Shown here: piece after piece, positions 1-58,108 of the stretch
Position numbering within the stretch: the stretch's first letter is position 1
How the letters are laid out: every line of letters begins with the position of its first letter
Source: Bacillota bacterium
Lineage (GTDB): Bacteria > Bacillota > Sulfobacillia > DUSP01 > DYEP01
DNA: 64,000 nucleotides
Assembly (NCBI GenBank): GCA_040755615.1
Contig: JBFMAL010000010.1
Location: 4,934-68,933, forward strand
Reading direction: 5' to 3'
Made by a program: the position numbers and the translations under genes
Notes under the pieces: generated by a model
Told to the model about the DNA's origin: nothing
The model's database searches: none
What the model saw: the letters and a program-made list of their open reading frames with translations, nothing else

Positions 1-416
1 CCAGTTTTATAAAGAAGTTTGGCCACGTGCTCAATTCCCCAGTGAAGAGGGTCGCGCCGTCTGTCATGAATGTATTCTTGAGATACTCATGGCCGGGCAA
101 CATCAGAGAGCTGGAACATACCATAGAAGGCGCAATGAACCTGGCGCAAGGAGAACAGATTGAGGCCGAGCACCTGCCTGCGTTTATAGCGCGGGCACAG
201 AGGGACGAAGCCTTAATCGACCTGCCCGCGCAAAAGCGTACGGGGAACGTCACAAGACCCTTAAGAGAGTTCCTTGCCGAGGTGGAGAGGGAGTACATCA
301 CTCAGGCATTGAAGACATGCAAGGGAAACGTATCGCGGGCGGCCCGATTGCTTGATATACCGAGGTCCACACTGCAGTACAGGATTTCTGTAATGAACGT
401 CGACCCGTGGCAATGA
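1..416 (+). CDS. Sigma-54-dependent transcriptional activator, C-terminal fragment (5' end lies outside the window)
   Basis: The reading frame is open from base 3. It shows the end of the AAA+ domain (YSWPGNIRELEH) and a C-terminal Fis-type HTH (GNVSRAARLLDIPRSTLQYRI). Confidence 0.85.
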   Translation, partial: SFIKKFGHVLNSPVKRVAPSVMNVFLRYSWPGNIRELEHTIEGAMNLAQGEQIEAEHLPAFIARAQRDEALIDLPAQKRTGNVTRPLREFLAEVEREYITQALKTCKGNVSRAARLLDIPRSTLQYRISVMNVDPWQ

Positions 417-440
417 GATTAAAAGAAGGAGGCCACACGG

Positions 441-1694
441 ATGAGATCCTACAAAGACATACCCCTCTGGTCTGATGTTCCGGAAGAGGATTGGAACGAC
501 TGGCATTGGCAGGTCCGTAACCGGATCACCGACGTTGAGACGCTGAAGAAGGTAATAAACCTGGTGCCTGAAGAAGAGGAAGGCGTGAAGCAATGCCTGA
601 ACACCCTGCGCATGGCCATCACCCCGTATTACGCCTCACTAATGGATCCGGACGACCCGGGCTGTCCCATAAGAAAACAGGCTGTTCCCAGCGTGAACGA
701 AATACACCGGGCGCGGAGCGATATGGACGATCCTCTTTATGAGGATATAGACTCGCCTGTACCAGGGCTCACGCACCGGTACCCGGACAGGGTGCTGCTT
801 TTGGTGACAGACCAGTGCTCCATGTACTGCAGGCACTGTACCAGGAGGAGATTCGCAGGGCAAACGGACAGGGCGCGTACCCGGGAAGAGATCGATGCGG
901 GCATCGAGTACGTGAGGAACACTCCGGTTGTGCGTGACGTGCTGCTGTCCGGCGGTGACGGCCTGCTGATCTCCGACGAGCTGCTTGAGTATACCATCGC
1001 CAAGCTGCGCGAGATCCCCCACGTCGAGTTGATCCGCATCGGTTCGCGTACCCCTGTAGTGCTCCCGCAGCGCATTACCACAAAGCTGGTAGACATGCTG
1101 AAGAAGTACCATCCCATCTTCCTGAACACGCATTTCAACCACCCGAAGGAGTTTACGGCAGAGTCGAGAGCGGCGTGCAACCGCCTGGCCGACGCCGGCA
1201 TTCCTGTGGGGAACCAGACGGTGCTGATGAGGCGGATCAACGACTGCCCTGTTACGATGAGAAAGCTCATGCAGGGCCTGCTCACAATGAGGGTTCGTCC
1301 CTATTACCTGTTCCAGTGCGATCTATCACCGGGCCTTGAGCACTTCAGGACGCCTGTCAGCCGCGGTATAGAGATGATAGAAATGTTGCGAGGACACACG
1401 TCCGGCCTCGCGGTTCCCACGTTCTGCGTGGACGCACCCGGGGGTGGCGGGAAGATCCCGGTCATGCCGCAGTACCTCATATCACAGGCGCCCGGCAAGA
1501 TTATCCTCAGGAATTACGAGGGTACAATAGCAATGTATACCGAACCTGCGAATACCGAGGCGTATGAGATGCCATGTCCCGTTTGCGGCACGAACCACCA
1601 AGAGCTGGATGTGGGAGTGGGCAGGTTGTTTTCCGAGAAGCAGATCGCGCTCGAGCCGTTAGATCTGAAACGGGCAAAGAGGCGGAAGCATTAA
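441..1694 (+). CDS. kamA: Lysine 2,3-aminomutase (radical SAM, PLP)
   Basis: GGAGG RBS 8 nt upstream. CSMYCRHCTRRR is the CxxxCxxC radical SAM motif. The length of 417 aa matches clostridial KamA. QCDLSPGLEHFRTP and VDAPGGGGKIP retain both Asp residues associated with lysine binding. Confidence 0.9.
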   Translation: MRSYKDIPLWSDVPEEDWNDWHWQVRNRITDVETLKKVINLVPEEEEGVKQCLNTLRMAITPYYASLMDPDDPGCPIRKQAVPSVNEIHRARSDMDDPLYEDIDSPVPGLTHRYPDRVLLLVTDQCSMYCRHCTRRRFAGQTDRARTREEIDAGIEYVRNTPVVRDVLLSGGDGLLISDELLEYTIAKLREIPHVELIRIGSRTPVVLPQRITTKLVDMLKKYHPIFLNTHFNHPKEFTAESRAACNRLADAGIPVGNQTVLMRRINDCPVTMRKLMQGLLTMRVRPYYLFQCDLSPGLEHFRTPVSRGIEMIEMLRGHTSGLAVPTFCVDAPGGGGKIPVMPQYLISQAPGKIILRNYEGTIAMYTEPANTEAYEMPCPVCGTNHQELDVGVGRLFSEKQIALEPLDLKRAKRRKH

Positions 1695-1788
1695 CGAAAA
1701 CCGGGCAGAATGCCCGAATATTGGCGCCGGAGAGCGGACAGCCCTGGCATATCCGGCCAGGAAGCGTGCGAAAAACCCACCACCCGAC

Positions 1789-1804
1789 TGGTACGATGCT
1801 TGCA
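1789..1804 (+). promoter_or_regulatory. Sigma-54 (-24/-12) promoter upstream of the corrinoid methyltransferase genes
   Basis: TGGTACGATGCTTGCA versus consensus TGGCACG-N4-TTGCW. GG and GC have the exact spacing and there is one mismatch. It lies about 57 nt upstream of the ATG at 1861. rpoN and a sigma-54 activator are both in the window. Confidence 0.7.
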
Positions 1805-1860
1805 CGTTGAACTTTTTGACCCTCGCTACTGCCCTAAACTTCCCCAAAAGGAGGAGCGAG

Positions 1861-2520
1861 ATGAACGAGCTGTTGAAGAGATTACGGAATGCCATTGTGG
1901 AAGGAGACGAGGATCAAGCGCTGCAGGCGACACGAGATGCTTTGGACAGCGGCATGGACCCGGTGGCCATCGTGTCCGACGGGCTTGCTGCCGCTATGAA
2001 CGAGATCGGTCGCCTCTGGAATGAGGAGGAGATCTTCCTGCCCGAAGTTGTCTTCTCCGCACAGATATTCAAAGAATGTATGGAGCTGGTAGAACCTGCG
2101 CTGCTTGAAGGCAAGAGCACCGAGCCTGCTGCCCACTTTGTGCTGGGGACCGTCAAAGGTGACCTGCACGACCTCGGTAAGAATATGGTAGGTACCATGC
2201 TGCAGACTGCGGGCTTCCGCGTGCACGACCTGGGTAAGGACGTACCAGCGGAGCGGTTTGTGGAAAAGGTGAAGGAACTCGGGTCTGCTCTGGTCGGTCT
2301 TTCCGCTCTACTCACTACTACTATGCTTGAGCAGAAGCGGGTGATCGAGGCCCTGGAGCAAGCGGGGCTGAGAGACAGGGTGAAGGTGCTCGTCGGTGGC
2401 GCACCTGTAACGGACAGCTGGGCGCGCGAAGTGGGTGCCGACGGATATGCGCCCAACGCTCCTCAGGCCACCGAAATCGCAAAAAGGCTGCTCTCTCAGA
2501 TGAAGGAGGGTAGCAACTGA
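1861..2520 (+). CDS. Corrinoid (cobalamin-binding) protein of a methyltransferase system, MtgC/MttC-like
   Basis: B12-binding DxHxxG motif (GDLHDLGKN), SALLTTT and LVGGAP motifs. AAAGGAGGAG RBS before the ATG at 1861. The TTG at 1807 in the ORF track would lie upstream of the predicted sigma-54 transcription start. Confidence 0.85.
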   Translation: MNELLKRLRNAIVEGDEDQALQATRDALDSGMDPVAIVSDGLAAAMNEIGRLWNEEEIFLPEVVFSAQIFKECMELVEPALLEGKSTEPAAHFVLGTVKGDLHDLGKNMVGTMLQTAGFRVHDLGKDVPAERFVEKVKELGSALVGLSALLTTTMLEQKRVIEALEQAGLRDRVKVLVGGAPVTDSWAREVGADGYAPNAPQATEIAKRLLSQMKEGSN

Positions 2521-3983
2521 TGAGAAACGAGGGCAAATTCCGGATACTCTCCCAGCCCGAAGTGGAACGCATACACGAAGAAGCGCTCCGTGTGCTGGAG
2601 AGGACAGGCGTGTACTTTGACTGTGATGAAGCGCTGGACGTGCTGGAAGCCGCGGGCGCCAGCGTGAACCGGGCGACCAGCGTGGTTCGATTCCCGAGGC
2701 AGCTCGTGATGGATGCGATAAAACTTGCGCCTTCCGAGATTCAACTACATGACAGGGAAGGTAACCCTTCTGTGTTGCTTGGAGGAGATCGGGTCCACTT
2801 CGATCCCGGGTCCTCCGGTGTCCGGTTCATGGAATCGGACGGAGTCACCGTGAGGGAGTCAAGAGCGGAAGACCTAAAGAAGATCGTACAGGTGACGGAC
2901 GCATTACCCCACATAGAGCTGCAGTCCACGGCGGTTGTGGCCAACGATGTTCCCAAGGAAATCGCCGACTCTTACAGGCTCTACATCGTCCTTTCGCATT
3001 CGAAAAAGCCTATCATCACAGGGGCATTCAGTGTGGACGGACTGTTCGATATGAAGGAGCTCCTGTCCGCGGTGGCGGGAGGCGATGAAGCGCTAGCCAA
3101 AAAGCCCAGGGCCGTATTTGATATCTGCCCCTCACCGCCGCTGAAATGGACGCACATCAGCGCGCGCAATATCATGGACTGCGCAAAGCTCGGGCTGCCG
3201 ATGGAGTTTGTATCTATGCCTATGCCCGGCGCCGCATCTCCCGCAACCATCGCCGGGTCAGTGGTGATTCACACGGCGGAAACCCTTAGCGGTACCACGC
3301 TCGCGCAACTGGTGAAGCCCGGCGCAGCGGTCGTCTGGGGTGGAGCCCCCGTGGTGTTTGATATGCGCTCGGGTACCACCCCCATGAGCGCGGTGGAAGC
3401 GACGATGATCGGTTGCGCCAGCACCCAGATGGGGAAATTCTACGGCCTACCCACGCACACATATACCTGCCTGTCTGACTCCAAGTGCAACGATGCGCAG
3501 GCGGGTCTTGAGACGGCAATGGGTGCGGTGATGGGGGCACTTGCAGGTATAAACGTGATATCAGGCCCCGGCATGCTGGACTTTGTAGGTACCATGAGCC
3601 TTGAGAAGCTGGTGATAGACAACGAGATATGTGGTTTGATACTGAGGCTCCTCCGGGGTATCGACGTGACCGACGATACACTTGCAACAGATCTCATCGT
3701 GGAGCTGGGACCCGGCGGAGATTACCTGAACACAAAACACACGCGGCAATGGTTTAAGAAAGAAGTGTATATACCGGGTCCTGCCATCGACCGCAAAGAC
3801 CGGAAGACTTGGGAGGCGCAGGGCTTTACCACATCCGAGCAAAGAGCGAGAAAAGTGGTCGCGGAGATTCTGAAGCAGAAGGAATTGGAAGGCCCGTGTG
3901 ACGCAAAGCTTTTGCTGGATGAAGCGATGAAGGCAGTGAAAAAGAGAGCAGGCGCGGATAATCTGCCCCTTGGCCCAAAGTAG
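2520..3983 (+). CDS. MttB-superfamily (trimethylamine methyltransferase family) methyltransferase, non-pyrrolysine type; substrate unknown
   Basis: 487-aa uninterrupted ORF with no in-frame UAG. The N-terminus (LSQPEVERIHEEALRVLERTGV) and overall length are typical of the MttB family. The start overlaps the upstream stop (TGATG). Confidence 0.85.
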   Translation: MRNEGKFRILSQPEVERIHEEALRVLERTGVYFDCDEALDVLEAAGASVNRATSVVRFPRQLVMDAIKLAPSEIQLHDREGNPSVLLGGDRVHFDPGSSGVRFMESDGVTVRESRAEDLKKIVQVTDALPHIELQSTAVVANDVPKEIADSYRLYIVLSHSKKPIITGAFSVDGLFDMKELLSAVAGGDEALAKKPRAVFDICPSPPLKWTHISARNIMDCAKLGLPMEFVSMPMPGAASPATIAGSVVIHTAETLSGTTLAQLVKPGAAVVWGGAPVVFDMRSGTTPMSAVEATMIGCASTQMGKFYGLPTHTYTCLSDSKCNDAQAGLETAMGAVMGALAGINVISGPGMLDFVGTMSLEKLVIDNEICGLILRLLRGIDVTDDTLATDLIVELGPGGDYLNTKHTRQWFKKEVYIPGPAIDRKDRKTWEAQGFTTSEQRARKVVAEILKQKELEGPCDAKLLLDEAMKAVKKRAGADNLPLGPK

Positions 3984-3993
3984 GAGGTAGGAC

Positions 3994-4797
3994 ATGTTTA
4001 TTGTCGGTGAAAAGATCAACACAAGCAGAAAGAAGATCAACCAGGCGGTTGTAGCGAGAGACGCCGATTACATTTTGAAAGTCGCCGGCGAACAGTTGGA
4101 CGCCGGAGCCGACATGATAGACGTCAATGCCGGGACTCTGGTAGACGGCGAACCTGACGCGCTGAGATGGCTTGTCCAGATCATCCAGGAGAGGTTTGAC
4201 GTACCTCTCTGCATAGACAGCCCGAACTCCGCAGCGCTTCTTGCGGCCCTGTCCGTGCATAAGGGGAGGGCCATGGTCAACTCGGTCACCATGGAAAAGG
4301 AACGCATGAGCGCGATCCTTCCAGTTGTCCTTCGCTTCGGATGCAAGGTCGTGGCGTTATGCATGGATGATAACGGCATCCCCGACACTGCCCAACAAAG
4401 GCTTGATATCGCCAGGCGGCTGGTGGCCCGCCTTGAGAGCGAGGGCATAAACAGAGAGGATATCTACCTTGACCCCCTCGTCCGGCCTATCAGCACTGGC
4501 GATAACTTCGGCATGGCCGTGCTTGATACACTAAGAGGCATCAGCGCAGAACTTCCCGGGGTCCACACTATCTGTGGTCTATCAAATGTGTCGTACGGTC
4601 TTCCCGAGCGGGCGCTGCTCAACAGGACATTCCTCGCAATGTGCATTGCGTCAGGACTTGATTCCGCCATTTTGGATCCCAACGACAATCGGCTGATGGC
4701 GTGCTTGCACTCGGCGTGGGCGCTTGCTGGCAGGGACAAGTTCTGCAGGAAATATCTGAAAGCGCACCGGGCAGGAAAACTCAGCGCGGATGTCTAA
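3994..4797 (+). CDS. Methylcorrinoid:tetrahydrofolate methyltransferase (pterin-binding domain, MtgA/AcsE-like)
   Basis: The N-terminus FIVGEKINTSRKKI...AGADMIDVNAG is typical of the pterin-binding/DHPS-like barrel methyltransferases. AGGAGG RBS. Confidence 0.8.
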   Translation: MFIVGEKINTSRKKINQAVVARDADYILKVAGEQLDAGADMIDVNAGTLVDGEPDALRWLVQIIQERFDVPLCIDSPNSAALLAALSVHKGRAMVNSVTMEKERMSAILPVVLRFGCKVVALCMDDNGIPDTAQQRLDIARRLVARLESEGINREDIYLDPLVRPISTGDNFGMAVLDTLRGISAELPGVHTICGLSNVSYGLPERALLNRTFLAMCIASGLDSAILDPNDNRLMACLHSAWALAGRDKFCRKYLKAHRAGKLSADV

Positions 4798-4915
4798 CTA
4801 TAAACACCCGTGAGTTGAACTTTATAGGGGAGGTGGTAGCACCGGCCTTTAAGAAGTTTTCTCCCGACAGATCATGGGCTCCTGAAAAAGAACGTTTTCA
4901 AGGAGGTAATCTCGG

Positions 4916-6475
4916 GTGGAACAAAACTTCGGCGCATTGTCGCTGCTGCCTCCCCTTATAGCCATCGGTCTGGCTATCTGGACGAAGCAGGTCATTCTTT
5001 CGTTGTTCATCGGTGTGGCGGTAGGTACATTCGTCTTCAACGGCTACGCGGTGCTCCCCGCTTTTTTTGACCTGATTGAGCGCATTGTGGCACAGATGAC
5101 GGATGATTGGCAGGCAAGAGTCCTAATCTTTACATGTCTTCTTGGCGGTATCGTGGGCCTGGTCCAGAAATCAGGCGGTTTTCGTTCCTTCGGCGAATGG
5201 GCCGGAAAGCGCGTGAAGACCAGAAAGGGAGCGCAGATCCTTACGTGGCTGGCTGGCGTGGTCATTTTCTTTGACGACTACTTCAACACCCTCACGGTCG
5301 GCTCCGTCATGAGGCCCCTCACCGACAGGTACAGAGTATCCCGTGAGAAACTGGCATACATCGTAGACTCCACCGCAGCACCCGTCTGCGTCCTGATCCC
5401 GATCTCGACCTGGGTCGCTTACATTGTATCCCTCATTGCAGCGGAGTTTACCAATGCGGGAATTGAAACAAGTCCGTTCCTCGCCTACATCACGTCCATT
5501 CCTTACAACCTCTACGCGCTCGCTGCTGTGGCCATGGTAGTCATGATCGCTGCGACGGACCTCGAGTTCGGCCCCATGGCCAAAGCGGAAAAGCGGGCCA
5601 TGCTTACAGGCGATGTATCAAGACCTGGAGTGACGGAAGTCCCCGGTCAGGATATCGCGTTGCTTAAGCCGGCTGAGAAGGGTTCCGCGTCTGACATGTT
5701 TCTTCCCATTATCACCCTGGTAGCCGTGACGATCATCGGCATTCTCTACACCGGCGGGTTCTTTGAGGGCGCAAGCTTCCAGGAGGCTGTTGGCGATGCA
5801 GATTCTGCTACGGCGCTCCTTTATGCGACCCTTCTGGCCAACGTTGTCGCAGTGGTATGGTATGCGATACGGAGGGTTGTGCCCATCATGGAATCCATGG
5901 AAGCCGTCGCTACCGGGATCAAGTCGATGGTGCCCGCGCTGTGCATCCTTATACTGGCATGGGCCATCGGCGGTGTCAGCTCGGACCTCGGTACCGGGGC
6001 CTACGTTGCTGAGATAGTGGGCAGCACGCTTCCCGGGTGGTCCATACCGATCATCCTCTTCATCGTGGCCTGCTTCATCTCATTTTCGACCGGTACGTCC
6101 TGGGGTACCTTCGCCATCGTCATGCCTCTCGCAGTACCGATCGGGCTTCAGACACACGCGGATCTGCTGGTGGTGATCGGGGCGGTACTGGCGGGCGGAA
6201 TCTTCGGGGACCACTGCTCGCCGATATCTGATACGACAGTTCTGTCGTCTACAGGTTCTGCGTGTAACCATATCGACCACGTGACAACCCAGATACCATA
6301 CGCGGTCGTTGCAGCTGCGTGCGCTGCTGTGGGCTTCCTCGTGGCGGGTCTTGTACCCAACGCCATACTGGCGGTAGTCGTCACTCTCGGGCTCCTCTTT
6401 GCGGTCGCATGGTATCTCCACAGGCGCGGCGAGGTATTGCCTGAGATAAAGGCAAAGAAGGCCGCCACTCACTGA
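4916..6475 (+). CDS. NhaC-family Na+/H+ antiporter-type transporter
   Basis: 519-aa polytopic membrane protein with NhaC-like segments (FDDYFNTLTVGSVMRP, GDHCSPISDTT). GTG start after AAGGAGG. Confidence 0.8.
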   Translation: MEQNFGALSLLPPLIAIGLAIWTKQVILSLFIGVAVGTFVFNGYAVLPAFFDLIERIVAQMTDDWQARVLIFTCLLGGIVGLVQKSGGFRSFGEWAGKRVKTRKGAQILTWLAGVVIFFDDYFNTLTVGSVMRPLTDRYRVSREKLAYIVDSTAAPVCVLIPISTWVAYIVSLIAAEFTNAGIETSPFLAYITSIPYNLYALAAVAMVVMIAATDLEFGPMAKAEKRAMLTGDVSRPGVTEVPGQDIALLKPAEKGSASDMFLPIITLVAVTIIGILYTGGFFEGASFQEAVGDADSATALLYATLLANVVAVVWYAIRRVVPIMESMEAVATGIKSMVPALCILILAWAIGGVSSDLGTGAYVAEIVGSTLPGWSIPIILFIVACFISFSTGTSWGTFAIVMPLAVPIGLQTHADLLVVIGAVLAGGIFGDHCSPISDTTVLSSTGSACNHIDHVTTQIPYAVVAAACAAVGFLVAGLVPNAILAVVVTLGLLFAVAWYLHRRGEVLPEIKAKKAATH

Positions 6476-6661: not shown

Positions 6662-7699
6662 ATGCCGAGAGAAATCCGGGTTGGGTTCTGGGGTATCGGG
6701 GCCATGGGCAAAGGTATGGTCCGGTGTGTGAGCCGAAAACCCGGCATGAGAATAGTCAGCGCTATTGTGCCCGCGGGCCACGGTGAGGGCGCCGACCTCG
6801 GCCGATTGGCAGGCTTGCCTGAGGATATGGGCGTCACCTGTATGGCGGATGTAGGACGGGCGCTCGACGAGGGAAAACCGGACGTGGTGCTTCACGCCAC
6901 CGCATCCTTTGTAAGAGAGGTATACCCTCAGATCACCGAACTGCTGAAGCGCGGCATCAACGTCATCTCCATCGCGGAAGAAATGTCGTTCCCGTATATC
7001 CGGGAACCCGAGCTTGCCAGGAGCCTGGATGAACTGGCGAAGCAAAACGGCGCCACGGTCCTGGGTACCGGAATCAACCCGGGATTCGTGCTGGACACGC
7101 TCATTATCGCCCTGACCGGCATCTGTCAGGATGTAAGAATGATCAAAGCGGCGAGGATAAACGACCTGTCGCCTTTTGGGCCCACGGTCATGAAGACTCA
7201 GGGCGTGGGCACCACGCCCGAGGAGTTTGAACGCGGTCTCGAGGATGGGAGTATCGTGGGGCATGTGGGGTTTCCGGAGAGCATCTCGCTGATCGCCAGG
7301 GCGGTCGGATGGGAAATAGATGAGATACGGCAGAGCCGGGAACCCATTATCTCAAAGACGTACAGGGAGACGCCTCACGCCCGTGTCGAGCCGGGCATGG
7401 TGGCAGGATGCAGGCATACTGCCATGGGGCTGAAGAAAGGCGAACCGCTGATAACACTCGAGCACCCACAGCAGATTCTCCCTCACCTTGACGGTGTAGA
7501 TACGGGCGACTACATACAAATCGAAGGTACACCCCCGGTGAACCTCACGATCAAGCCGGAGATTCCGGGAGGGACAGGCACTGTGGCCATAGCATGCAAC
7601 ATGATCCCTGTGGTGATCGATGCGCCGCCGGGGCTTGCTACGATGGCGGATCTGCCTGTCCCCAGAGCGATCCTAGGCCAGTGGAGGAAGGGGGACTGA
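6662..7699 (+). CDS. ord: 2,4-diaminopentanoate dehydrogenase
   Basis: DapB-like N-terminal Rossmann motif (IRVGFWGIGAMGKG). It is the first gene of the ort/ora cluster. Confidence 0.8.
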   Translation: MPREIRVGFWGIGAMGKGMVRCVSRKPGMRIVSAIVPAGHGEGADLGRLAGLPEDMGVTCMADVGRALDEGKPDVVLHATASFVREVYPQITELLKRGINVISIAEEMSFPYIREPELARSLDELAKQNGATVLGTGINPGFVLDTLIIALTGICQDVRMIKAARINDLSPFGPTVMKTQGVGTTPEEFERGLEDGSIVGHVGFPESISLIARAVGWEIDEIRQSREPIISKTYRETPHARVEPGMVAGCRHTAMGLKKGEPLITLEHPQQILPHLDGVDTGDYIQIEGTPPVNLTIKPEIPGGTGTVAIACNMIPVVIDAPPGLATMADLPVPRAILGQWRKGD

Positions 7700-7704
7700 T
7701 ATTG

Positions 7705-8019
7705 ATGCCGGAAAAAGGCGCGTGGGTTGAAGTCTATAACATAGTTCTCCCAGCCGGATCGCGGGCGCCTCAGGTACCCCGGGACACGCAGGATGTACCT
7801 CTTGAGATGAGGGTGAGAGGCTTTCTTCTTGCCGAGGCAGAGCTAGGCAAAGAGTGTACAATCAGAACGCTTTCAGGCAGACAGGTCAAGGGGATTTTAG
7901 TGAACGATTCACCGCGGCACGTGCACGATTTCGGTGAACCGGTTCGGGAGCTCCTTGAAATAGGACCCGAGGTCAGACGCATGCTCTGGCCCTCGTTATG
8001 GGGTGGCAGCGATGAATAA
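7705..8019 (+). CDS. ortA: 2-amino-4-ketopentanoate thiolase, alpha subunit
   Basis: About 104 aa (WVEVYNIVLPAGSRAPQVPRDTQDVPLEMRVRGFL), immediately upstream of ortB. The internal ATG at 7705 is preferred over the ORF-track start at 7594, which overlaps ord. Confidence 0.8.
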   Translation: MPEKGAWVEVYNIVLPAGSRAPQVPRDTQDVPLEMRVRGFLLAEAELGKECTIRTLSGRQVKGILVNDSPRHVHDFGEPVRELLEIGPEVRRMLWPSLWGGSDE

Positions 8020-9430
8020 GAGCTACGAAGCGGTCATGAGCAGAAAGAACAAGATTATGATCGACGCCGTGGGGCTTGACTACACGCAGTTTGAGCGCGG
8101 GCCATTAGCATTTGATTACGAGGGTATGATGCGCTCAGCGGGCTATTCGATAGAGCGAGTAAAGCAGATCCAGGCGGAGACCTCCGTGGGAGACACCCCT
8201 TTGATCGAACTGCGCAACCTGGAAACGCTAGTGCGCAGGATGGCGCCGCCGGGCAAAGGCGCGAGAATACTGGTAAAGGACGAAGCCGCAAACCCCTCGG
8301 GGAGTTTCAAGGAGAGGCGCGCGGCGCTGTCGGTGTACCAGGCTGCAAAGCAAGGATACAAGGGCGTGATAGCTGCCACCAGCGGCAACTACGGCGCGGC
8401 AGTGGCCTCCCAGGCGGCCATGAGGGGCCTCAAATGTATAGTAGTCCAGGAAGTGTATGATAGCCGCGGCCTCGGACAGCCCGAGATTCTGGAGAAGGGC
8501 AGGCGATGCGAGGCGTACGGGGCTGAGGTACTGCAGCTCAGTGTGGGGCCTGAGCTGTTCTATGTATTCCTGCTCTTGCTTGAGGAAACGGGGTTCTTCA
8601 ACGCGTCGCTGTACACGCCGTTTGCCATCGCGGGCGTGGAGACGCTGGGGTACGAGGTGGGCAGGCAGGTGATGGAGCGCTACGGCAGGCAGCCCGATGC
8701 GGTGCTCATCACCCACGCGGGAGGCGGCAACGTCACGGGCACCGCCAGGGGCCTATTACAAGCTGGTTGCGATCGCACCAAGGTGGTGGGCGTTTCCGTG
8801 GACCTTTCGGGGCTTCACATGGCCTCTGACAGAGACTTTAACAGAAAATCGTTTACTACGGGTCACACCGGTTTCGGCGTGCCATTTGCGACCTGGCCCG
8901 ACAGGGCGGACGTGCCGAGAAACGCTGCCAGGCCCTTAAGGTATCTGGACCGGTACGTCACTGTTACCCAGGGCGAGGTGTTCTATGTGACGGAGCTGCT
9001 GGCCCAGCTCGAGGGACTCGAGCGCGGGCCCGCAGGCAACACGTCCCTGGCCGCTGCGCTGTCCATTGCTGCGGAGATGGACGAGGACCAGATCCTGGTG
9101 GTGCAGGAAACAGAGTACACCGGCGCAGGGAAGCACCCGACTGCCCAGCTCACGTTCGCCCGGCAGAACGGCATCACAGTACGGAGAGGCGACCCGGCGG
9201 AGAGCATACCGGGAGAACTCATCGTAATACCAGAGGGCCCGCATCAGGTGAAGGCAAAGGACATTGACCTGAGCGCGCTTGCCCGCTCATACATAAGGAA
9301 TGCGCTGGAACGATCGGGCGTCAGACAACCCGATGAATTTGAAATCGAGTTTCTTGCAAAAGAGGTCAAAAGAGATCGTGAGTTCGTAAAAGGCGTGATA
9401 GATGAGGTAACAGGAGGAAGGGAAAAGTGA
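8012..9430 (+). CDS. ortB: 2-amino-4-ketopentanoate thiolase, beta subunit (PLP-dependent, tryptophan-synthase-beta fold)
   Basis: PLP-lysine motif NPSGSFKERRA and the glycine loop HAGGGN. The start is ATG 8012 (ATGAATAA overlap with the ortA stop); ATG 8003 is also possible. Confidence 0.85.
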   Translation: MNKSYEAVMSRKNKIMIDAVGLDYTQFERGPLAFDYEGMMRSAGYSIERVKQIQAETSVGDTPLIELRNLETLVRRMAPPGKGARILVKDEAANPSGSFKERRAALSVYQAAKQGYKGVIAATSGNYGAAVASQAAMRGLKCIVVQEVYDSRGLGQPEILEKGRRCEAYGAEVLQLSVGPELFYVFLLLLEETGFFNASLYTPFAIAGVETLGYEVGRQVMERYGRQPDAVLITHAGGGNVTGTARGLLQAGCDRTKVVGVSVDLSGLHMASDRDFNRKSFTTGHTGFGVPFATWPDRADVPRNAARPLRYLDRYVTVTQGEVFYVTELLAQLEGLERGPAGNTSLAAALSIAAEMDEDQILVVQETEYTGAGKHPTAQLTFARQNGITVRRGDPAESIPGELIVIPEGPHQVKAKDIDLSALARSYIRNALERSGVRQPDEFEIEFLAKEVKRDREFVKGVIDEVTGGREK

Positions 9431-9825
9431 TCCAACGACCTGACGACTTTGCGAAGCGGCGAGCCGCGCTTGCAGGTCTTACGGAGGAACAGCTCAAGGA
9501 GCGATTCTGGTCCGCTGCTTTTGAAGTGGTGGCTCCTTTAGTCGAACTCGCCCGGCAGCATACGTCTCCTTCCATCGAGCGCTCGGTACTTCTGCGGATG
9601 GGCTTTTCCAGTATTGAGGCGAAGACTATAGTAGAGCTGTGCGCCGAGAGAGGGCTGCTCGGCAAAGGGGCCGGGCATGTCGTGCTGAAATATGCGGAGG
9701 CCAGAGGGCTTTCCATCAGGGCAGCAGGCGAGGAGCTATGTTCGAAAAAGGGATGGGATACAGTGCAGGATCTGTTCCAGAAAGGGGGACTGGCGCTTGA
9801 CACTCCACCCAAACAAGAAGATTGA
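9427..9825 (+). CDS. oraS: D-ornithine 4,5-aminomutase, S subunit
   Basis: SPSIERSVLLRMGFSSIEAKTIV and GKGAGHVV segments are characteristic of OraS. The GTG start overlaps the ortB stop. Confidence 0.85.
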   Translation: MIQRPDDFAKRRAALAGLTEEQLKERFWSAAFEVVAPLVELARQHTSPSIERSVLLRMGFSSIEAKTIVELCAERGLLGKGAGHVVLKYAEARGLSIRAAGEELCSKKGWDTVQDLFQKGGLALDTPPKQED

Positions 9826-11998
9826 CATAGAGGAAGTGCTGGCAGATCTCGAGCACTACAGGCCAAGACGGAAAGGCTGGTGCTGGAGAGAGGCCGATGG
9901 GCGAAAAGAAGGCGCCTTCGAGTACAGGCAGGCGTCAAAAAGGCTGGAGAGCAGCATTCCCCTGCCTGCTGCCAGGCATTTTGGGGGCATTGATCCTCAA
10001 CCCGATTGCGTGATTACCACGGAGATTGCCTCCGGAAGGTTCGAAGACGATATAAGGCGGATGCGCATGGCCGCGTGGCACGGGGCGGACCACATCATGG
10101 TCATCCGAACCGCGGGTCAGAGCCACTACGACGGCCTGATCGAAGGAACGCCGGAAGGGGTGGGCGGGGTACCCATCTCCAGGAAGCAGCTTCGGGCAAC
10201 GCGGAAGGCGCTGGACATGATAGAGGACGAGGTGGGCAGGCCCATCAACTTCCACTCGTACGTAAGCGGGGTGGCCGGGCCCGAAATCGCCGTATTGTTT
10301 GCCGAGGAAGGCGTAAACGGAGCCCACCAGGATCCACAGTATAACGTGTTGTACAGGAACGTGAACATGCACCGGTCCTTTGTGGATGCGGCCGTCGCAA
10401 AGGCGATCATGGCGTCAGCAGGCATGCTGCAGATCGACGGTGCCCACAACGCCAACGCCACTGCCCGGGAGGCCTTCAAGGTGATGCCCGAGCTTATGGT
10501 ACAACACGCAATAAACTGCGCATTTTCCGAGTCAGTGGGCATGCAAAAAGACAGTATTTGCTTGAGCACTGTTCCGCCCACGGCTCCTCCGGCCCCTGCG
10601 TTGTGGCTCGATCTCCCGTACGCTGTAGCGCTCAGGAAGATGTTTGAAGGGTACCGTTTCAGAGCCCAGGAAAACACAAGGTACATAGAATCCGACGCAC
10701 GCGAGGCGACAGTCACCCACGTGCTCAACCTGCTTGTGTCCCGGCTTACCTCAGCCCACATCCAGAGTACGATCACTCCTGATGAGGGCAGAAACGTCCC
10801 CTGGCATTACAATAATGTCGCTGCCATACAGACAGCTAAACAAGCCTTGGTAGGGATGGACGGCCTGTCCGAATTGGTGAAGCTTGACGAAGATGGGCCT
10901 CTCGGCGAGAAGGTGCGTGAGCTGATGGAACGCGCGGTGCTGTTTATGGAAGAGATAAGGGATTCCGGAGGCTATTTCGAGGCCGTCTCCCGGGGGTTCT
11001 TTGTGGACTCTGGCTTTTACCCGGAGAGAAATGGTGATGGCATCGCCCGAGATCCGAAGGGGGGCGTGGGCCACGGCACCATCGTCCCGCGCGATGCAGA
11101 CTATCTTGCTCCTGTATGCCATCACTTCGGGCACAATGCCCTGCCCGCTGGCATTGAGCGCCCGTGCGACCTGATTGGGGGTTGTACTCTGTGTGACCCG
11201 TCCAAGATCGTTTACATAGATGAACTGGATGAACAGGATAACGTCAGGGCGCGGCTTGAGCCTTTCCGGGAGCACAAGCAGAAAGGGCTCATAAGACCAG
11301 AGGTCCAGTGGTACGGAGATGGTATGATATCGATGACAATGTTTCTGCCCGTGTCTGAAACGATGGCGGAGCATGCTGCGGTCGCCATAGCAGAGAGGCT
11401 CGGCCTTGGCGATCCCGAGGTGATACACAAGGCGGTAATGCACCCCGCTGAAGGTACCCTGATTGAACTGAAAGCTATGGTGCCATTTGACATAGACCCC
11501 GGGAGTATCAGAATACCGGAGAAGCCGAGGACGCTTTCGGAAGAGGAAATCAGGCAGGCCATCTCCAGACGCCCGATGCACGCTGTGGCCGCGACTGTGG
11601 GTGAAGACGAGCACTCGGTCGGCATGCGTGAGATCATAGATATAAAGCATGGAGGGCTCGAAAAGTTCGGTATCCGGGTTACTTACCTCGGCACATCGGT
11701 TCCGGTGGAAAAGCTGGTAGACGCGGCTATTGAAACAGACGCAGATGCCATACTGATAAGTACGATCATAACTCACGCAGACATCCACAGGAAGAACATG
11801 AAGAGACTGCATGAGCTTTGCGTGGAAAAAGGCATCCGGGACAGGCTTTTGCTCATCTCGGGAGGCACCCAGGTCACTTATGACATGGCCCGGGAGTGTG
11901 GAATGGACGCTGGGTTTGGAAGGGGCACAAGGGGCATCGACGTGGCGAGTTTCCTGGTCAGAGAGAGGGAATCCAGATCGTCCGGCCGGGGAGTGTGA
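9797..11998 (+). CDS. oraE: D-ornithine 4,5-aminomutase, E subunit (PLP and B12 binding)
   Basis: About 733 aa with a C-terminal B12-binding Rossmann domain (ATVGEDEHSVGMREI, ISTIITH). The likely start is TTG 9797, preceded by AAGGGGGA. ATG 9692 in the ORF track would overlap oraS by 134 nt. Confidence 0.85.
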   Translation: MTLHPNKKIDIEEVLADLEHYRPRRKGWCWREADGRKEGAFEYRQASKRLESSIPLPAARHFGGIDPQPDCVITTEIASGRFEDDIRRMRMAAWHGADHIMVIRTAGQSHYDGLIEGTPEGVGGVPISRKQLRATRKALDMIEDEVGRPINFHSYVSGVAGPEIAVLFAEEGVNGAHQDPQYNVLYRNVNMHRSFVDAAVAKAIMASAGMLQIDGAHNANATAREAFKVMPELMVQHAINCAFSESVGMQKDSICLSTVPPTAPPAPALWLDLPYAVALRKMFEGYRFRAQENTRYIESDAREATVTHVLNLLVSRLTSAHIQSTITPDEGRNVPWHYNNVAAIQTAKQALVGMDGLSELVKLDEDGPLGEKVRELMERAVLFMEEIRDSGGYFEAVSRGFFVDSGFYPERNGDGIARDPKGGVGHGTIVPRDADYLAPVCHHFGHNALPAGIERPCDLIGGCTLCDPSKIVYIDELDEQDNVRARLEPFREHKQKGLIRPEVQWYGDGMISMTMFLPVSETMAEHAAVAIAERLGLGDPEVIHKAVMHPAEGTLIELKAMVPFDIDPGSIRIPEKPRTLSEEEIRQAISRRPMHAVAATVGEDEHSVGMREIIDIKHGGLEKFGIRVTYLGTSVPVEKLVDAAIETDADAILISTIITHADIHRKNMKRLHELCVEKGIRDRLLLISGGTQVTYDMARECGMDAGFGRGTRGIDVASFLVRERESRSSGRGV

Positions 11999-12002
11999 CC
12001 GC

Positions 12003-13445
12003 ATGCATTTTGACCTTCTTGTTGCGGAAATAGGAAGCACTACCACAACGGTATCCGCGTTCCGCGGCATATATGGACAGCAGCCGGAGTTTGGCGGTCA
12101 GGGTATTGCTCCCACCACCGTGCTGCAAGGCGACGTGACTGAAGGGCTCATGGCCGCCATAGAGGATCTGCGTGGGCAGCTGGGCGAGGAAATTACGTAT
12201 GACAGTATGTTCGCCTCTTCCAGTGCGGCAGGTGGGCTGAAGATGACAGTTCACGGCCTGGTCTATGATATGACTGTGAAGGCGGCACGGGAAGCGGCTC
12301 TGGGAGCCGGAGCAGTACTCAGGTACGTGACTTCGGGGGTCATGGACGGGGATGACCTCTCCCGGATCCTTGAGATAAAGCCCAACATCATCCTGCTTGC
12401 CGGCGGGGTGGACTATGGCGAGAAAACCACTGTCATCGCCAACGCAAGAAGCATCAGTCAGCTTGATATCGACGCGCCGGTGATATACGCTGGGAATGTG
12501 GCTGCCGGCGAAACTGTCAGATCAATCCTTGAGTCTGCCGGTAAGAAGGTAATATGCGTTGAAAACGTCTACCCAAGGATCGATGATCTCAATATTGAAC
12601 CGACCAGACGCGCCATCCAGAAGGTGTTCGAAGAGCACATTGTGGTCGCACCGGGTATGGAACGGATCAGGGCGATGGTTGATGGCAGAATCATACCGAC
12701 ACCGGGAGCAGTGATGAACGCTGCGATCCTCCTGTATGAGCAACTGGGTGACCTCATGGTGGTTGACGTGGGTGGGGCCACGACGGACGTCCACTCCGTG
12801 ACGTCCGGGTCAGAGGAGATCTCAGAGATGCTGATATCTCCGGAGCCCCTCGCGAAAAGGACTGTCGAAGGAGACCTCGGCATATTCGTCAATGCACCTA
12901 ACGTGGTTTCGATCATAGGGGAGGATACGTTAAGGGCCGAACTTGGCGAGGATCCGGCGTCGCTCCTTGCGAGGCGCAGCGTGATTCCGGCGGATGAGAC
13001 CGAGCGTCGCTTTGTGGAGCGGCTTACCGAGGAGGCCGTGACGGTGGCGGTATCAAGGCATGCGGGCAAGCTGAAGCACCTTTACGGCCCTACCGGGCGC
13101 ATCACTGTAGCAGAGGGTAAGGATTTAAGCAGAATCAGGTGGATCATTGGCACCGGCGGCGCATTGACCCGGTTGCCGGGGGGGAAAAGGATACTCGAAG
13201 GTATTCCCTCTGAAAGGAGGGGCAAGGAGCTTTACCCTAAGGACGCCCGTGCGCTGATAGACACTGATTACATCATGGCAGCGGCAGGCACGTTGGGAGT
13301 TCGATTTCCTGACGCAGCGGCCAAACTAATGCTCAGCAGTCTTGGATTGGGGGGGACAGGAAATGAAAAATCCCCGCATAGAGATTTACACAGAACGCAT
13401 CACGCAAAACGCAAGAGTTGTGGTGGACCTGTGCTCGAAGCATAA
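12003..13445 (+). CDS. GlmL/MutL-family aminomutase accessory (reactivase-like) protein
   Basis: Actin-like ATPase N-terminus (DLLVAEIGSTTTTVSAF) and VVDVGGATTDVHSV. ATG 12003 lies just after the oraE stop. The last ~28 codons overlap orr. Confidence 0.8.
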   Translation: MHFDLLVAEIGSTTTTVSAFRGIYGQQPEFGGQGIAPTTVLQGDVTEGLMAAIEDLRGQLGEEITYDSMFASSSAAGGLKMTVHGLVYDMTVKAAREAALGAGAVLRYVTSGVMDGDDLSRILEIKPNIILLAGGVDYGEKTTVIANARSISQLDIDAPVIYAGNVAAGETVRSILESAGKKVICVENVYPRIDDLNIEPTRRAIQKVFEEHIVVAPGMERIRAMVDGRIIPTPGAVMNAAILLYEQLGDLMVVDVGGATTDVHSVTSGSEEISEMLISPEPLAKRTVEGDLGIFVNAPNVVSIIGEDTLRAELGEDPASLLARRSVIPADETERRFVERLTEEAVTVAVSRHAGKLKHLYGPTGRITVAEGKDLSRIRWIIGTGGALTRLPGGKRILEGIPSERRGKELYPKDARALIDTDYIMAAAGTLGVRFPDAAAKLMLSSLGLGGTGNEKSPHRDLHRTHHAKRKSCGGPVLEA

Positions 13446-14430
13446 AGTGACGGTGACGGGCGTAACGAAAGGTGCCTGCGCCCACCCGGATGTGGCCTGG
13501 GCGATGCTCGACGGAGGAGTGGCTGGACTGGCTGATTCCCGTGTGGCGAACCTGGCGCGGCTTCGAAAGGCGGGAATCAGAGCGGAGATGATGTTGTTGC
13601 GTATTCCCATGCCGAGCGAAACCAAGAGCGTGGTAGATGTGGCAGATATCAGTCTAAACTCGGAAATCTCCACCATCAGGAGTCTTGGGGAAGCGGCAAT
13701 CAAAAAAGGCGTTATCCATAAGGTCATACTTATGGTAGATACGGGAGACCTGCGAGAAGGCGTGTGGCCGGATGACGTCGTTCGGACATGTGCCGAGATC
13801 CGGAAGGTCCCCGGCGTCACGCTGGAAGGGATCGGCACAAACCTGGGATGCTACGGAGGAGTGATCCCGACCGAAACTAACCTGGGTCAGCTCGTTCATT
13901 TGAAGACACAGGTGGAAGAGGCGACGGGCAGGAGGCTGAGGCTGGTTTCCGCCGGGACGTCCGCCACATTCAACCTGCTTCAGGAGGGAAAACTCCCGGA
14001 AGGCATCAACCACTTCAGGGTCGGGGAAGCAATACTCCTTGGGACGGAAGCCGTGAGCGGCAGGGTGCTTCCGGGCGCCACTTCCGATTGTTTTCGACTT
14101 GTGGCTGAAGTGGTAGAAGTGAAGACCAAACCGTCTTTACCCATCGGGGAGGTGGGCTGGGACGCTTTCAGGACGGTACCCCGGTTTGTGGACAGGGGCA
14201 TCAGGAAACGGGCCATTTTGTCCATAGGAAGGCAGGATATCAGGCCTGAGGCCATGGAGCCGCTGCTTGCGGGGTGCGAAATACTGGGCGCATCTTCCGA
14301 CCATCTAATCGTGGATGTGACAGACTGCCCGACGGAAGTCCGCGTCGGAGATGAAATGCCCTTCAGAATTGGTTACGGTGCGTTGCTTCAGGCCATGACC
14401 TCGGAGTATGTTGAGAAAGTTGTATTATGA
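13363..14430 (+). CDS. orr: Ornithine racemase (alanine-racemase-fold PLP enzyme)
   Basis: The GVTKG PLP-lysine context and its position at the end of the ora genes. ATG 13363 follows a GGGGGA RBS. Confidence 0.8.
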   Translation: MKNPRIEIYTERITQNARVVVDLCSKHKVTVTGVTKGACAHPDVAWAMLDGGVAGLADSRVANLARLRKAGIRAEMMLLRIPMPSETKSVVDVADISLNSEISTIRSLGEAAIKKGVIHKVILMVDTGDLREGVWPDDVVRTCAEIRKVPGVTLEGIGTNLGCYGGVIPTETNLGQLVHLKTQVEEATGRRLRLVSAGTSATFNLLQEGKLPEGINHFRVGEAILLGTEAVSGRVLPGATSDCFRLVAEVVEVKTKPSLPIGEVGWDAFRTVPRFVDRGIRKRAILSIGRQDIRPEAMEPLLAGCEILGASSDHLIVDVTDCPTEVRVGDEMPFRIGYGALLQAMTSEYVEKVVL

Positions 14431-14442
14431 GGTGGTGCAGGA

Positions 14443-19110: not shown

Positions 19111-19213
19111 GGCTGCCCAACATCCCATATATTAAAGCAATCTACCAGGAGGATATCGCCCCGCATGCCTAGAATGATCGCAGCACTTGGATAAAAGGGG
19201 GCAGGCGCCGGGG

Positions 19214-43767: not shown

Positions 43768-43769
43768 AG

Positions 43770-53086: not shown

Positions 53087-53122
53087 ACGGCAGGGGGCTC
53101 TTTTTCGCCCCCCGTCTTTTTT
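53086..53122 (+). terminator. Hairpin with T6 tract between gap and pgk (partial terminator/attenuator)
   Basis: GACGGCAGGGGGC...GCCCCCCGTC followed by TTTTTT. Confidence 0.6.

Positions 53123-55271: not shown

Positions 55272-58108
<2,837 letters not shown>

Follow-up and report, generated by a model that had tools for sequence, protein, structure and literature searches.

What does a corrinoid methyltransferase system act on when it lies between a lysine 2,3-aminomutase gene and an ornithine fermentation operon? The question was raised by an initial annotation of a 64,000-nucleotide stretch of a Bacillota bacterium contig (GCA_040755615.1, JBFMAL010000010.1, positions 4,934 to 68,933; hereafter the window), which described a complete three-component methyl-transfer set of unknown substrate. 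We find that the observation is correct: all of the open reading frames (ORFs) exist where they were described and the source assembly calls the same genes. The interpretation is supported only in part, because the module boundaries were drawn wrongly and the substrate is still an inference.

Gene content of the locus

All features given here with window coordinates are on the forward strand. Positions 3-416 encode the C-terminal 137 aa of a sigma-54 enhancer-binding protein (AAA_lid_14, 72 bits; HTH_8, 59.6 bits). The full protein of 472 aa, comprising a PAS domain, a sigma-54 AAA+ domain and HTH_8, starts upstream of the window and is encoded at 3931-5349 of the source contig (L001; similar labels denote the other fetched loci). 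Twenty-four nucleotides downstream, positions 441-1694 encode lysine 2,3-aminomutase (KamA; TIGR03820, 607 bits against a cut-off of 525.4). It aligns over its full length to the Clostridium subterminale enzyme (2A5H, 629.6 bits), with the CxxxCxxC motif and the epsilon-ammonium ligands D293 and D330 conserved.

The methyl-transfer set follows. Positions 1861-2520 encode a corrinoid protein of 219 aa (Cor-1; TIGR02370, 222.8 bits against a cut-off of 215.3) with B12-binding and B12-binding_2 domains (PF02310 and PF02607) and a DxHxxG motif (GDLHDLG), and its stop codon overlaps the start codon of the next gene. That gene, at 2520-3983, is a single uninterrupted ORF of 487 codons in the MttB family (MttB-1; PF06253, 318 bits) and is the predicted substrate:corrinoid methyltransferase. 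It scores below the equivalog cut-off for pyrrolysine (Pyl)-containing MttB (TIGR02369, 427 against 525 bits), and Leu318 occupies the pyrrolysine position. Positions 3994-4797 encode a pterin-binding methylcorrinoid:tetrahydrofolate (THF) methyltransferase of 267 aa (PtMT-1; NF005719, 352.8 bits against a cut-off of 259; PF00809), and 4916-6475 encodes an NhaC-superfamily transporter of 519 aa (PF03553, 224 bits), the probable substrate importer or substrate/product exchanger. The ornithine fermentation operon lies at 6662-14430; ord, ortA, ortB, oraS, oraE and a GlmL-like gene all score above their NCBIfam cut-offs, while orr scores just below its own. No RamA-type activase was found among the large ORFs of the window that were scanned, although the smaller ORFs were not all included. 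Beyond the window, the source contig continues upstream with a second full set consisting of an MttB-family methyltransferase (MttB-2), a corrinoid protein (Cor-2, to which Cor-1 is 46% identical) and a pterin methyltransferase, which the initial annotation could not see.

Conservation of the gene neighborhood

How widely this neighborhood is conserved had been put forward as a test of the original proposal. KamA, MttB-2, a corrinoid protein and MttB-1 are clustered, in varying order, in about 13 fetched loci (L001-L003, L018, L019, L026, L027, L030/L038, L032, L034, L035, L036 and L045), and the module is found in many uncultured anaerobes. KamA orthologs at 65-71% identity lie next to MttB-2/MttB-1 in L018, L019, L026, L027, L030, L032, L034-L036, L038 and L045. 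KamA is a conserved member of the module and not a mere neighbor. Most loci also carry the sigma-54 activator, transporters of the NhaC, EamA, APC or OpuA type, and a small GNAT. Activator orthologs at 50-54% identity are present in L018, L019, L026, L030, L038 and L045, and PtMT-1 orthologs at 52-57% identity in L018, L019, L030, L043 and L045. Homologs of the NhaC-type transporter sit next to MttB-1 orthologs in loci that lack the ornithine operon: L017 (72%), L018 (50%), L026 with two copies, L030, L038 and L036 with a partial copy. By contrast, the ornithine operon is adjacent in only two lineages, that of the window (L001-L003) and, after an insertion, L045, and is a neighbor rather than a conserved part of the module.

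The MttB-1 and MttB-2 subtrees are congruent, and at least 15 top hits of the two protein searches report longest contigs of identical size, which suggests that they share contigs. Three other kinds of lysine enzyme are found next to the same clades. A homolog of L-lysine 6-dehydrogenase (LysDH; best PDB match 3ABI, 177 bits) sits beside MttB-1 in L017, L033 and L043; Kce, Kal, KamE and KamD, all above their NCBIfam cut-offs, lie 4 kb from an MttB-2/MttB-1 pair in L047; and a KamA remnant lies next to an MttB-1 homolog in L044. The association is not universal, as about half of the MttB-1-clade relatives examined at 55-60% identity have no lysine gene nearby (for example L020, and L021, which has three other MttB genes, an Opp transporter and a peptidase). 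The GNAT lies directly upstream of KamA in 7 or more loci but is missing from the window lineage and from L019. It is about 150 aa long, most resembles diamine, polyamine and thialysine N-acetyltransferases, and gave only generic GNAT hits and no beta-lysine acetyltransferase hit in NCBIfam.

Predicted sigma-54 regulation

A sigma-54 -24/-12 promoter-like element, TGGTACGATGCTTGCA, is located at 1789-1804 in the intergenic region between KamA and the corrinoid gene, 57 nt upstream of the corrinoid start codon. The same class of motif sits in front of methyltransferase or KamA operons in other module loci, with 16 hits on the module strand against 1 on the other strand in 224 kb, and in front of both divergent operons in L045. 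No such motif was found upstream of ord. The trans-acting factor needed for the predicted promoters, RpoN (sigma-54), is encoded in the window at 48631-49998 and has the Sigma54_AID, Sigma54_CBD and Sigma54_DBD domains. The module appears to be sigma-54 controlled, as the initial annotation proposed.

Relationship to characterized MttB-family enzymes

The original proposal would have failed had MttB-1 fallen inside the MtgB (glycine betaine) clade with its substrate-binding residues conserved; neither is the case. MttB-1 is about equally distant from MtgB (9YCE, 248.6 bits) and Pyl-MttB (7XCL, 238.8 bits), forms its own clade and lies outside the MtgB branch, whereas an MtgB-like protein included as a control (L042) groups with MtgB and keeps Y, R and H. 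The MtgB ligands Y97, R312, H348 and F356 are replaced in MttB-1 by S, H, G/S and V, and all four are replaced in MttB-2 as well. Arg312 is conserved in every characterized non-Pyl member, namely MtgB, MtcB, MtpB, MtyB and MthB (PMC13080624); the position is His in MttB-1 and Ser or Ala in MttB-2. The Eubacterium limosum enzymes were not included in our tree, so separation from them rests on this published criterion. All four positions carry smaller residues, which is compatible with a longer substrate.

The absence of RamA, the non-BCCT transporter and the sigma-54-type control, which the initial annotation noted, are not unusual for this family. In E. limosum, MtyB and MtcB sit next to MFS transporters and RocR-like regulators, the choline cluster carries an EamA transporter, and the activase RamQ is encoded elsewhere (PMC8604678, PMC12155760).

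A proposed pathway for N-methylated lysine

The core idea that this is a non-Pyl MttB system, that it is not a glycine-betaine enzyme, and that its context points to an N-methylated basic amino acid holds. Our preferred reading, which we consider about as likely as not, is that the window holds the downstream half of a conserved catabolic module for an N-methylated lysine, most probably N-epsilon-mono-, di- or trimethyl-lysine released from proteins or algae. This substrate has not yet been assigned to the enzyme family, and no paper in the library we searched links the family to lysine or methyl-lysine. In this view, the PAS-containing activator, together with RpoN, switches on two methyltransferase operons; the promoter motifs and rpoN are observed, while the inducer is inferred. 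The substrate would enter through the NhaC-type carrier, with EamA, APC or OpuA-type ABC transporters serving instead in other lineages, a step that is inferred in full. The transporters fit a cationic, methyl-ammonium amino acid, and the NhaC superfamily contains the candidate lysine transporter LysW (PMC5584792). The two divergent MttB paralogs would each transfer an N-methyl group to the Co(I) form of a cognate corrinoid protein; their family membership is demonstrated, but their substrate is inferred, as is a division of labor in which MttB-1 performs the last step that frees the amine. Transfer of the methyl group to THF by the pterin-binding methyltransferase follows from family membership. 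The lysine released would then be isomerized by KamA, whose identity is well supported, to beta-lysine. Reactivation of the corrinoid would rely on an activase encoded elsewhere in the genome.

No biochemical or expression data exist for the module, and the assignment of the substrate rests entirely on guilt by association. Characterized non-Pyl MttB enzymes remove only one methyl group, from quaternary amines, whereas releasing free lysine from trimethyl-lysine needs three demethylations, including those of secondary and tertiary amines, which is unprecedented without pyrrolysine. The window contig lacks kamDE, kdd, kce and kal, so the genes present do not reveal what becomes of beta-lysine; in other lineages it could be N-acetylated by the module's GNAT or fermented through KamDE, Kdd, Kce and Kal encoded elsewhere.

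Alternative explanations

A much less likely but possible alternative is that the methyl donor is another lysine-derived compound, such as a methylated beta-lysine or a lysine betaine, in which case KamA would act before or between the two demethylations, or run in the beta-to-alpha direction, rather than after them. KamA sits between the two methyltransferase sets in the window, L018 and L019; there are two distinct MttB paralogs, each with its own corrinoid protein; the GNAT-KamA pairing recalls beta-lysine N-acetylation; and the lysine 2,3-aminomutase reaction is reversible. However, the KamA residues that bind a free epsilon-NH3+ are conserved, MttB-1 orthologs also pair with L-lysine 6-dehydrogenase homologs that act on alpha-lysine, and methylated beta-lysines are not known as abundant natural compounds.

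Slightly less probable is a methylated ornithine or arginine-derived compound, such as N-delta-methyl- or trimethyl-ornithine, whose demethylated product would feed the adjacent ornithine operon. In its favor are the adjacency of that operon in the window lineage and again in L045, the Orr-like racemases inside the module in L045 and L043, a DDAH-like gene near MttB-1 in L043 and an ornithine carbamoyltransferase gene in the window; the recurrence of the operon and the racemases leaves room for another basic amino acid. On the other hand, the ornithine genes are absent from about 10 other module loci, ord has no sigma-54 motif, the Orr-like racemases score below the Orr cut-off, and the conserved partners KamA, LysDH and KamDE/Kce/Kal are lysine-specific families that score above their equivalog cut-offs.

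We also consider it doubtful that this is an osmolyte-handling module, in which KamA and the GNAT would synthesize N-epsilon-acetyl-beta-lysine in the manner of AblA/AblB while the methyltransferase sets demethylate an imported betaine-type solute, with both functions co-regulated. The position of the GNAT upstream of KamA, the OpuA-type ABC transporter with an OpuAC binding protein in L019, the origin of several loci from soda-lake sediment contigs and the AblA name of TIGR03820 are in its favor. Against it stand the small and generic GNAT and its absence from some loci, the loss of the betaine-binding residues of MtgB, including the carboxylate-binding Arg, from both MttB paralogs, and the catabolic nature of the links to LysDH and KamDE/Kce/Kal.

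Ordinary demethylation of glycine betaine or another known quaternary amine, placed next to amino-acid genes by chance, is very unlikely: the corrinoid proteins score fairly well against the MtgC models (217-232 bits, below cut-off) and three-component sets of this kind are common, but the tree, the four replaced ligands and the recurrence of KamA in several gene orders across lineages argue against it. Equally unlikely is a biosynthetic module running in reverse, using methyl-THF and the corrinoid proteins to N-methylate lysine or beta-lysine made by KamA into a solute for export; KamA and the GNAT resemble a biosynthetic pair and methyl transfer to and from corrinoids is reversible in principle, but no MttB-family member is known to work as an N-methylase, and the sigma-54 PAS activator, the uptake-type systems (an OpuA binding protein and APC permeases) and the proximity to lysine fermentation genes fit catabolism better.

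Comparison with known systems

The MtgB/MtgC/MtgA glycine betaine:THF methyltransferase system of Desulfitobacterium hafniense (2QNE and 9YCE) has the same three-component logic of a non-Pyl MttB-family TIM-barrel methyltransferase, a B12-binding corrinoid protein and a pterin-binding methyltransferase, and MttB-1 aligns to MtgB over its full length. It differs in that the present module is duplicated and contains KamA, and in that both paralogs form separate clades. The MtpB, MtcB, MtyB and MthB systems of E. limosum (proline betaine, carnitine, gamma-butyrobetaine, phosphocholine) are likewise non-Pyl MttB paralogs specialized for different methyl-ammonium substrates, and the choline cluster also contains an accessory enzyme, MthK (PMC12155760). 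Those enzymes remove one methyl group and the product is excreted, whereas here two paralogs are coupled to enzymes that metabolize the predicted demethylated product.

The module's KamA is a close homolog of the enzyme of the lysine fermentation pathway (KamA, KamDE, Kdd, Kce, Kal) of Clostridium and Fusobacterium, but in the window and in most module loci only KamA is present. The pairing of a lysine 2,3-aminomutase with a GNAT in most versions of the module resembles AblA/AblB N-epsilon-acetyl-beta-lysine synthesis in methanogens and some bacteria, although AblAB operons are not known to contain corrinoid methyltransferases. Finally, the Pyl-dependent trimethylamine methyltransferase MttB of Methanosarcina barkeri, which acts with MttC, shares the fold and family, and MttB-2 scores slightly higher against it (7XCL, 250 bits) than against MtgB (234 bits). 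There is no in-frame UAG here, the Pyl position is Ala in MttB-2, and MttB-2, like MttB-1, scores below the TIGR02369 cut-off.

Gene content of the window

ORF listing and profile searches confirmed every gene described in the initial annotation, at the stated coordinates, so the observation itself holds. The window opens at 3-416 with the C-terminus of a sigma-54 enhancer-binding protein (AAA_lid_14 and HTH_8 domains), followed at 441-1694 by the lysine 2,3-aminomutase KamA (TIGR03820, 607 bits against a cut-off of 525.4). A corrinoid protein, Cor-1, lies at 1861-2520 (TIGR02370, above cut-off) and carries the DxHxxG B12-binding motif as GDLHDLG. It is followed at 2520-3983 by MttB-1, an uninterrupted ORF of 487 codons in the MttB family (PF06253, 318 bits over residues 5-455), and at 3994-4797 by a pterin-binding methyltransferase, PtMT-1 (NF005719, 352.8 bits against a cut-off of 259). 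An NhaC-family transporter (PF03553, 224 bits) occupies 4916-6475, and the ornithine genes ord, ortA, ortB, oraS, oraE, a GlmL-like gene and orr run from 6662 onward. MttB-1 thus belongs to the non-pyrrolysine branch of the MttB superfamily, with a corrinoid protein and a methylcorrinoid:THF methyltransferase as immediate neighbors, although substrate-dependent methylation of the Co(I)-corrinoid was not assayed. An ORF of 104 aa at 1710-2024 has no family hit and overlaps both the promoter and Cor-1, and was treated as spurious. The G+C content is even across the region (0.55-0.60). No RamA-type activase was found among the larger ORFs of the 64 kb that were scanned.

The module extends beyond the window

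MttB-1 was located on its source contig in NCBI assembly GCA_049320785.1 (locus L001), and a 93-94% identical locus occurs in a JGI metagenome and in a MAG labelled Symbiobacterium sp. The contig shows that the window cuts the module in half. Upstream of window position 1, at L001 892-3876, lies a second complete set consisting of MttB-2 (491 aa, 32% identical to MttB-1), a corrinoid protein, Cor-2 (214 aa, 46% identical to Cor-1), and a diverged pterin-binding methyltransferase (278 aa; NF005719, 170 bits, below the cut-off of 259). Next comes the full-length activator (472 aa, with PAS, sigma-54 AAA+ and HTH_8 domains), with KamA following 24 nt downstream. The real unit is therefore MttB-2, Cor-2 and PtMT-2, then the activator and KamA, then Cor-1, MttB-1 and PtMT-1, and finally NhaC.

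Conserved gene neighborhood

The contexts of homologs were fetched by protein-identity look-up and by an alignment-based metagenome scan, and the window's proteins were mapped onto these loci (each denoted by L and a number) with tblastn. Exact-peptide scans of genome contigs with a single protein had found only one close relative. Orthologs of both paralogs (61-73% identity for MttB-2 and 54-64% for MttB-1) lie together with a corrinoid gene in L018, L019, L023, L025-L028, L030, L032, L034-L036, L038, L045 and L047. KamA (65-71% identity) is in the same cluster in 12 of the 14 such loci whose flanks extend far enough to tell, with L001-L003 counted as one locus. The two exceptions are L025, which lacks KamA in its 12.7 kb, and L047, which has no KamA in the 21.5 kb fetched. 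The position of KamA varies: it is upstream of MttB-2 in L026, L027, L030, L032, L034-L036 and L038, between the two sets in the window, L018 and L019, and downstream of MttB-1 in L045. Varying order with constant membership argues for selection on the linkage rather than simple shared ancestry. The NJ subtrees of MttB-1 and MttB-2 are congruent, and at least 15 top hits of the two protein searches report longest contigs of identical size, which suggests that they lie on the same contigs.

Other members of the module recur as well. The activator is found at 50-54% identity. NhaC-type carriers are present in two copies each in L026, L030 and L038, one copy in L018 and a partial copy in L036, and a copy at 72% identity sits next to an MttB-1 ortholog in L017. 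Alternative transporters include EamA in L018 and L045, an APC permease in L036, and an OpuA-type ABC system with an OpuAC binding protein in L019. A GNAT of about 150 aa lies immediately upstream of KamA in seven loci and is also present in L018 and L045, but is absent from the window lineage. In contrast to KamA, which belongs to the module, the ornithine operon mostly does not: Ord, OrtB and OraE homologs occur only in L001-L003, while in L045 ord-ortA-ortB follow the module after an inserted SMC-like/HicA block.

An Actinomycetota/Thermoleophilia-type contig, L046, places an MttB-2 homolog (56%), further MttB genes, KamA (58%), a RamA-type activase and four tandem EamA transporter genes together. 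At L046 11555-15859, one long open frame, followed by the activase and the EamA genes, spans two MttB-like segments and KamA and was called as a 1320-aa product, raising the possibility of a Rosetta-stone MttB-KamA fusion. We did not accept this reading, because the MttB-like segments fall in three reading frames in a high-GC contig and frameshifts or run-on ORFs are likely; only the adjacency is used as evidence.

Links to lysine metabolism

MttB-1 orthologs that lack KamA and MttB-2 sit next to a saccharopine-dehydrogenase-family protein in L017, L033 and L043. Its best solved relative by far is 3ABI (177 bits, against 54 bits for saccharopine dehydrogenase), the L-lysine 6-dehydrogenase of Pyrococcus horikoshii (PMC10413350). 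L043 adds an APC permease, an Orr-like racemase and EtfBA. On its minus strand at 2926-3849, 3 kb from the locus that holds Cor, MttB-1, the racemase, the LysDH-like gene and EtfBA, there is a DDAH/arginine-deiminase-family protein (dimethylargininase model, 107 bits, below cut-off).

In L047, a string of Cor, MttB-2 (65%) and MttB-1 (53%, with the PTHTY...LSD motif) lies 4 kb from kce, kal, kamE and kamD, all four of which score above their NCBIfam equivalog cut-offs. The complete lysine fermentation pathway is not present alongside kamA in the window: kamDE, kdd, kce and kal were not found among the window ORFs scanned or in the 5 kb upstream (the rest of the genome was not searched), and kce, kal, kamE and kamD were seen only near the MttB pair in L047. 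In L044, at 9410-15281, a 164-aa C-terminal remnant of KamA precedes an MttB-1 homolog, followed by dimethylamine and trimethylamine methyltransferase genes, each of which is split in two, as expected for in-frame amber (pyrrolysine) codons. A corrinoid protein, a proline-racemase-family gene and an ornithine-cyclodeaminase-family gene are also present there.

The KamA of the module is canonical. It scores 629.6 bits full length to the C. subterminale LAM (2A5H), with which CSMYCRHC, QCDLS and VDAPGGGG align; the radical-SAM CxxxCxxC motif and the epsilon-ammonium ligands D293 and D330 are conserved. The best structural relatives of the GNAT by sequence are polyamine, diamine and thialysine N-acetyltransferases. 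We considered whether the GNAT is AblB, but it gave only generic GNAT hits. The NhaC superfamily contains LysW, the candidate lysine transporter controlled by a lysine riboswitch (PMC5584792).

Relationship to characterized MttB-family enzymes

Neither paralog is a known enzyme. In full-length alignments MttB-1 is about equally distant from MtgB (9yce, 248.6 bits) and the pyrrolysine-dependent MttB (7xcl, 238.8 bits), while MttB-2 is marginally closer to Pyl-MttB (250 against 234 bits). Neither is the Pyl-dependent trimethylamine methyltransferase: on TIGR02369, MttB-1 scores 427 bits and MttB-2 451 bits against an equivalog cut-off of 525, and there is no UAG. Leu318 of MttB-1 aligns with the pyrrolysine of 7xcl, and the corresponding residue of MttB-2 is Ala.

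The 2026 structure paper on MtgB defines the glycine-betaine ligands as Y97, R312, H348 and F356, and states that R312, which binds the acidic group, is conserved in MtcB, MtpB, MthB and MtyB (PMC13080624). In a MAFFT alignment of 60 or so sequences, these four positions are S, H, G/S and V in the MttB-1 clade, whose motif P-T/C-H-T-Y...L-S/T-D is nearly invariant, and G, S/A, G and S in the MttB-2 clade, and this holds across the orthologs. The Arg312 equivalent is thus His313 in MttB-1 and Ser or Ala in MttB-2. The MtpB, MtcB, MtyB and MthB sequences themselves were not compared directly, nor was a full phylogeny with all characterized members built. All four positions carry smaller side chains, from which we infer compatibility with a deeper pocket for a longer substrate. 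No structure prediction was made.

The initial annotation had stated what would overturn its view, namely a firm placement within the MtgB (glycine betaine) clade with conserved substrate-binding residues. This was examined and was not found. In the NJ tree, which is a rough distance tree, MtgB groups only with an unrelated MtgB-like protein from L042, whereas MttB-1 and MttB-2 form separate clades. The L042 protein keeps Y, R and H, and serves as a positive control.

Regulation

The strict sigma-54 motif TGGYAY-N5-TTGCW occurs at window 1789-1804, in the KamA/Cor-1 spacer 57 nt before the Cor-1 start, and at L001 839-854, 38 nt before MttB-2. Across 224 kb of module loci there are 16 hits on the module strand and 1 on the opposite strand, where about 0.4 per strand would be expected for equal base frequencies. 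The hits lie in front of Cor-1, MttB-2, KamA/GNAT or transporter genes, and in L045 one motif precedes each of the two divergent methyltransferase operons. The overall count of sigma-54-like matches with 2 mismatches in L001 is no higher than chance, so that only the strict motif and its positions are informative. Together with the full-length activator on L001 and rpoN (sigma-54), which lies on the same contig at window 48631-49998, these sites fit a sigma-54 regulon; transcription was not examined. No such motif lies before ord, either in the window or in L045, and no Rfam family (lysine or cobalamin riboswitch) was detected in the window or in four module loci.

Control by a sigma-54-type regulator is not new for this family. 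In E. limosum, mtyB and mtcB are divergently transcribed from RocR homologs, the activase RamQ is encoded elsewhere, and the transporters are of MFS or EamA types (PMC8604678; PMC12155760). The arguments that the initial annotation drew from the missing RamA and from a transporter that is not of the BCCT type therefore carry little weight.

Predicted substrate of the module

The initial annotation proposed that the substrate could be an N-methylated amine or amino acid not yet assigned to this superfamily, and our analysis bears this out in part. What the sequences establish is a duplicated three-component corrinoid methyl-transfer system, a canonical lysine 2,3-aminomutase as a conserved module member, promoter-like sigma-54 sites with rpoN in the window, a recurrent association of the same MttB clades with three independent kinds of lysine enzyme, and the absence of the ligand residues of every characterized non-Pyl member. 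That the methyl donor is an N-methylated lysine, and that its demethylated product, lysine, is handed to KamA, is our inference. In other lineages the product would go to lysine 6-dehydrogenase or to the KamDE/Kce/Kal pathway. MttB-1 occurs alone with enzymes that need a free amine, so it probably performs the last demethylation, and MttB-2 would then act on a more highly methylated form; this is speculation. Known non-Pyl MttB enzymes demethylate only quaternary amines, and neither the fate of beta-lysine on this contig nor the role of the GNAT has been assigned. The recurrence of ornithine genes and Orr-like racemases keeps a methylated ornithine or other basic amino acid possible.

About half of the more distant MttB-1-clade relatives examined have other contexts. 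In the Desulfitibacter-type contigs L021/L022 (6994-21482), for example, an MttB-1-clade member (57% identity) sits in a cluster of four MttB paralogs with an Opp-type peptide ABC transporter and a 1051-aa C25-like peptidase, with a PucR-type regulator upstream, which hints at methylated peptides as a source of substrate.

A further-reaching possibility, which we regard as doubtful but which the evidence leaves standing, is that MttB-1, alone or together with MttB-2, is the first corrinoid-dependent, pyrrolysine-independent N-demethylase acting on free methyl-lysines, including secondary and tertiary amines, down to lysine. That would define an anaerobic catabolic route for methyl-lysine and trimethyl-lysine that yields methyl-THF instead of trimethylamine, and would extend MttB-family chemistry beyond quaternary amines.

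Only a handful of substrates are assigned to the very large non-Pyl MttB superfamily, and all are small quaternary amines. Full-text searches found no paper that connects MttB or corrinoid methyltransferases with trimethyl- or methyl-lysine, or with an aminomutase. All close homologs come from MAGs or metagenomes and are annotated only as "trimethylamine methyltransferase family protein", and our results show that context-based annotation of these genes as "trimethylamine methyltransferase" is misleading. The machinery is of a kind already described; what is new is the architecture and probably the substrate class. A conserved module that couples two uncharacterized MttB clades to lysine-specific enzymes gives a concrete hypothesis for such a class, testable with commercially available compounds. 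Methyl-lysines are ubiquitous products of protein turnover, and trimethyl-lysine is a carnitine precursor and a reported precursor of TMA and TMAO. If correct, the hypothesis would add an anaerobic sink for methyl-lysines and a new source of C1 units in digesters, sediments and soda lakes, and would raise the mechanistic question of how a secondary or tertiary amine is activated without pyrrolysine.

Other genes in the window

Between orr and the ornithine carbamoyltransferase gene, at 14443-16757, there are a LigB/AMMECR1 fusion protein and a radical SAM protein, resembling an AmmeMemoRadiSam-type pair. At 17735-19048 and 19187-20284, a 437-aa ORF without any Pfam or NCBIfam hit is followed by a second Orr-like racemase paralog, which scores 341 bits on the Orr model (cut-off 480). 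On the same model the operon's own orr scores 441 bits, and the racemases inside the module in L043 and L045 score 346-362 bits. The rest of the window (42535-45149, 52076-58108, 58467-63218 and 27762-27835) is filled with housekeeping genes, namely argG and argH, a glycolytic block that includes gap, pgk, gpmI and eno, an H+-pyrophosphatase, RNase R, and one tRNA on the minus strand.
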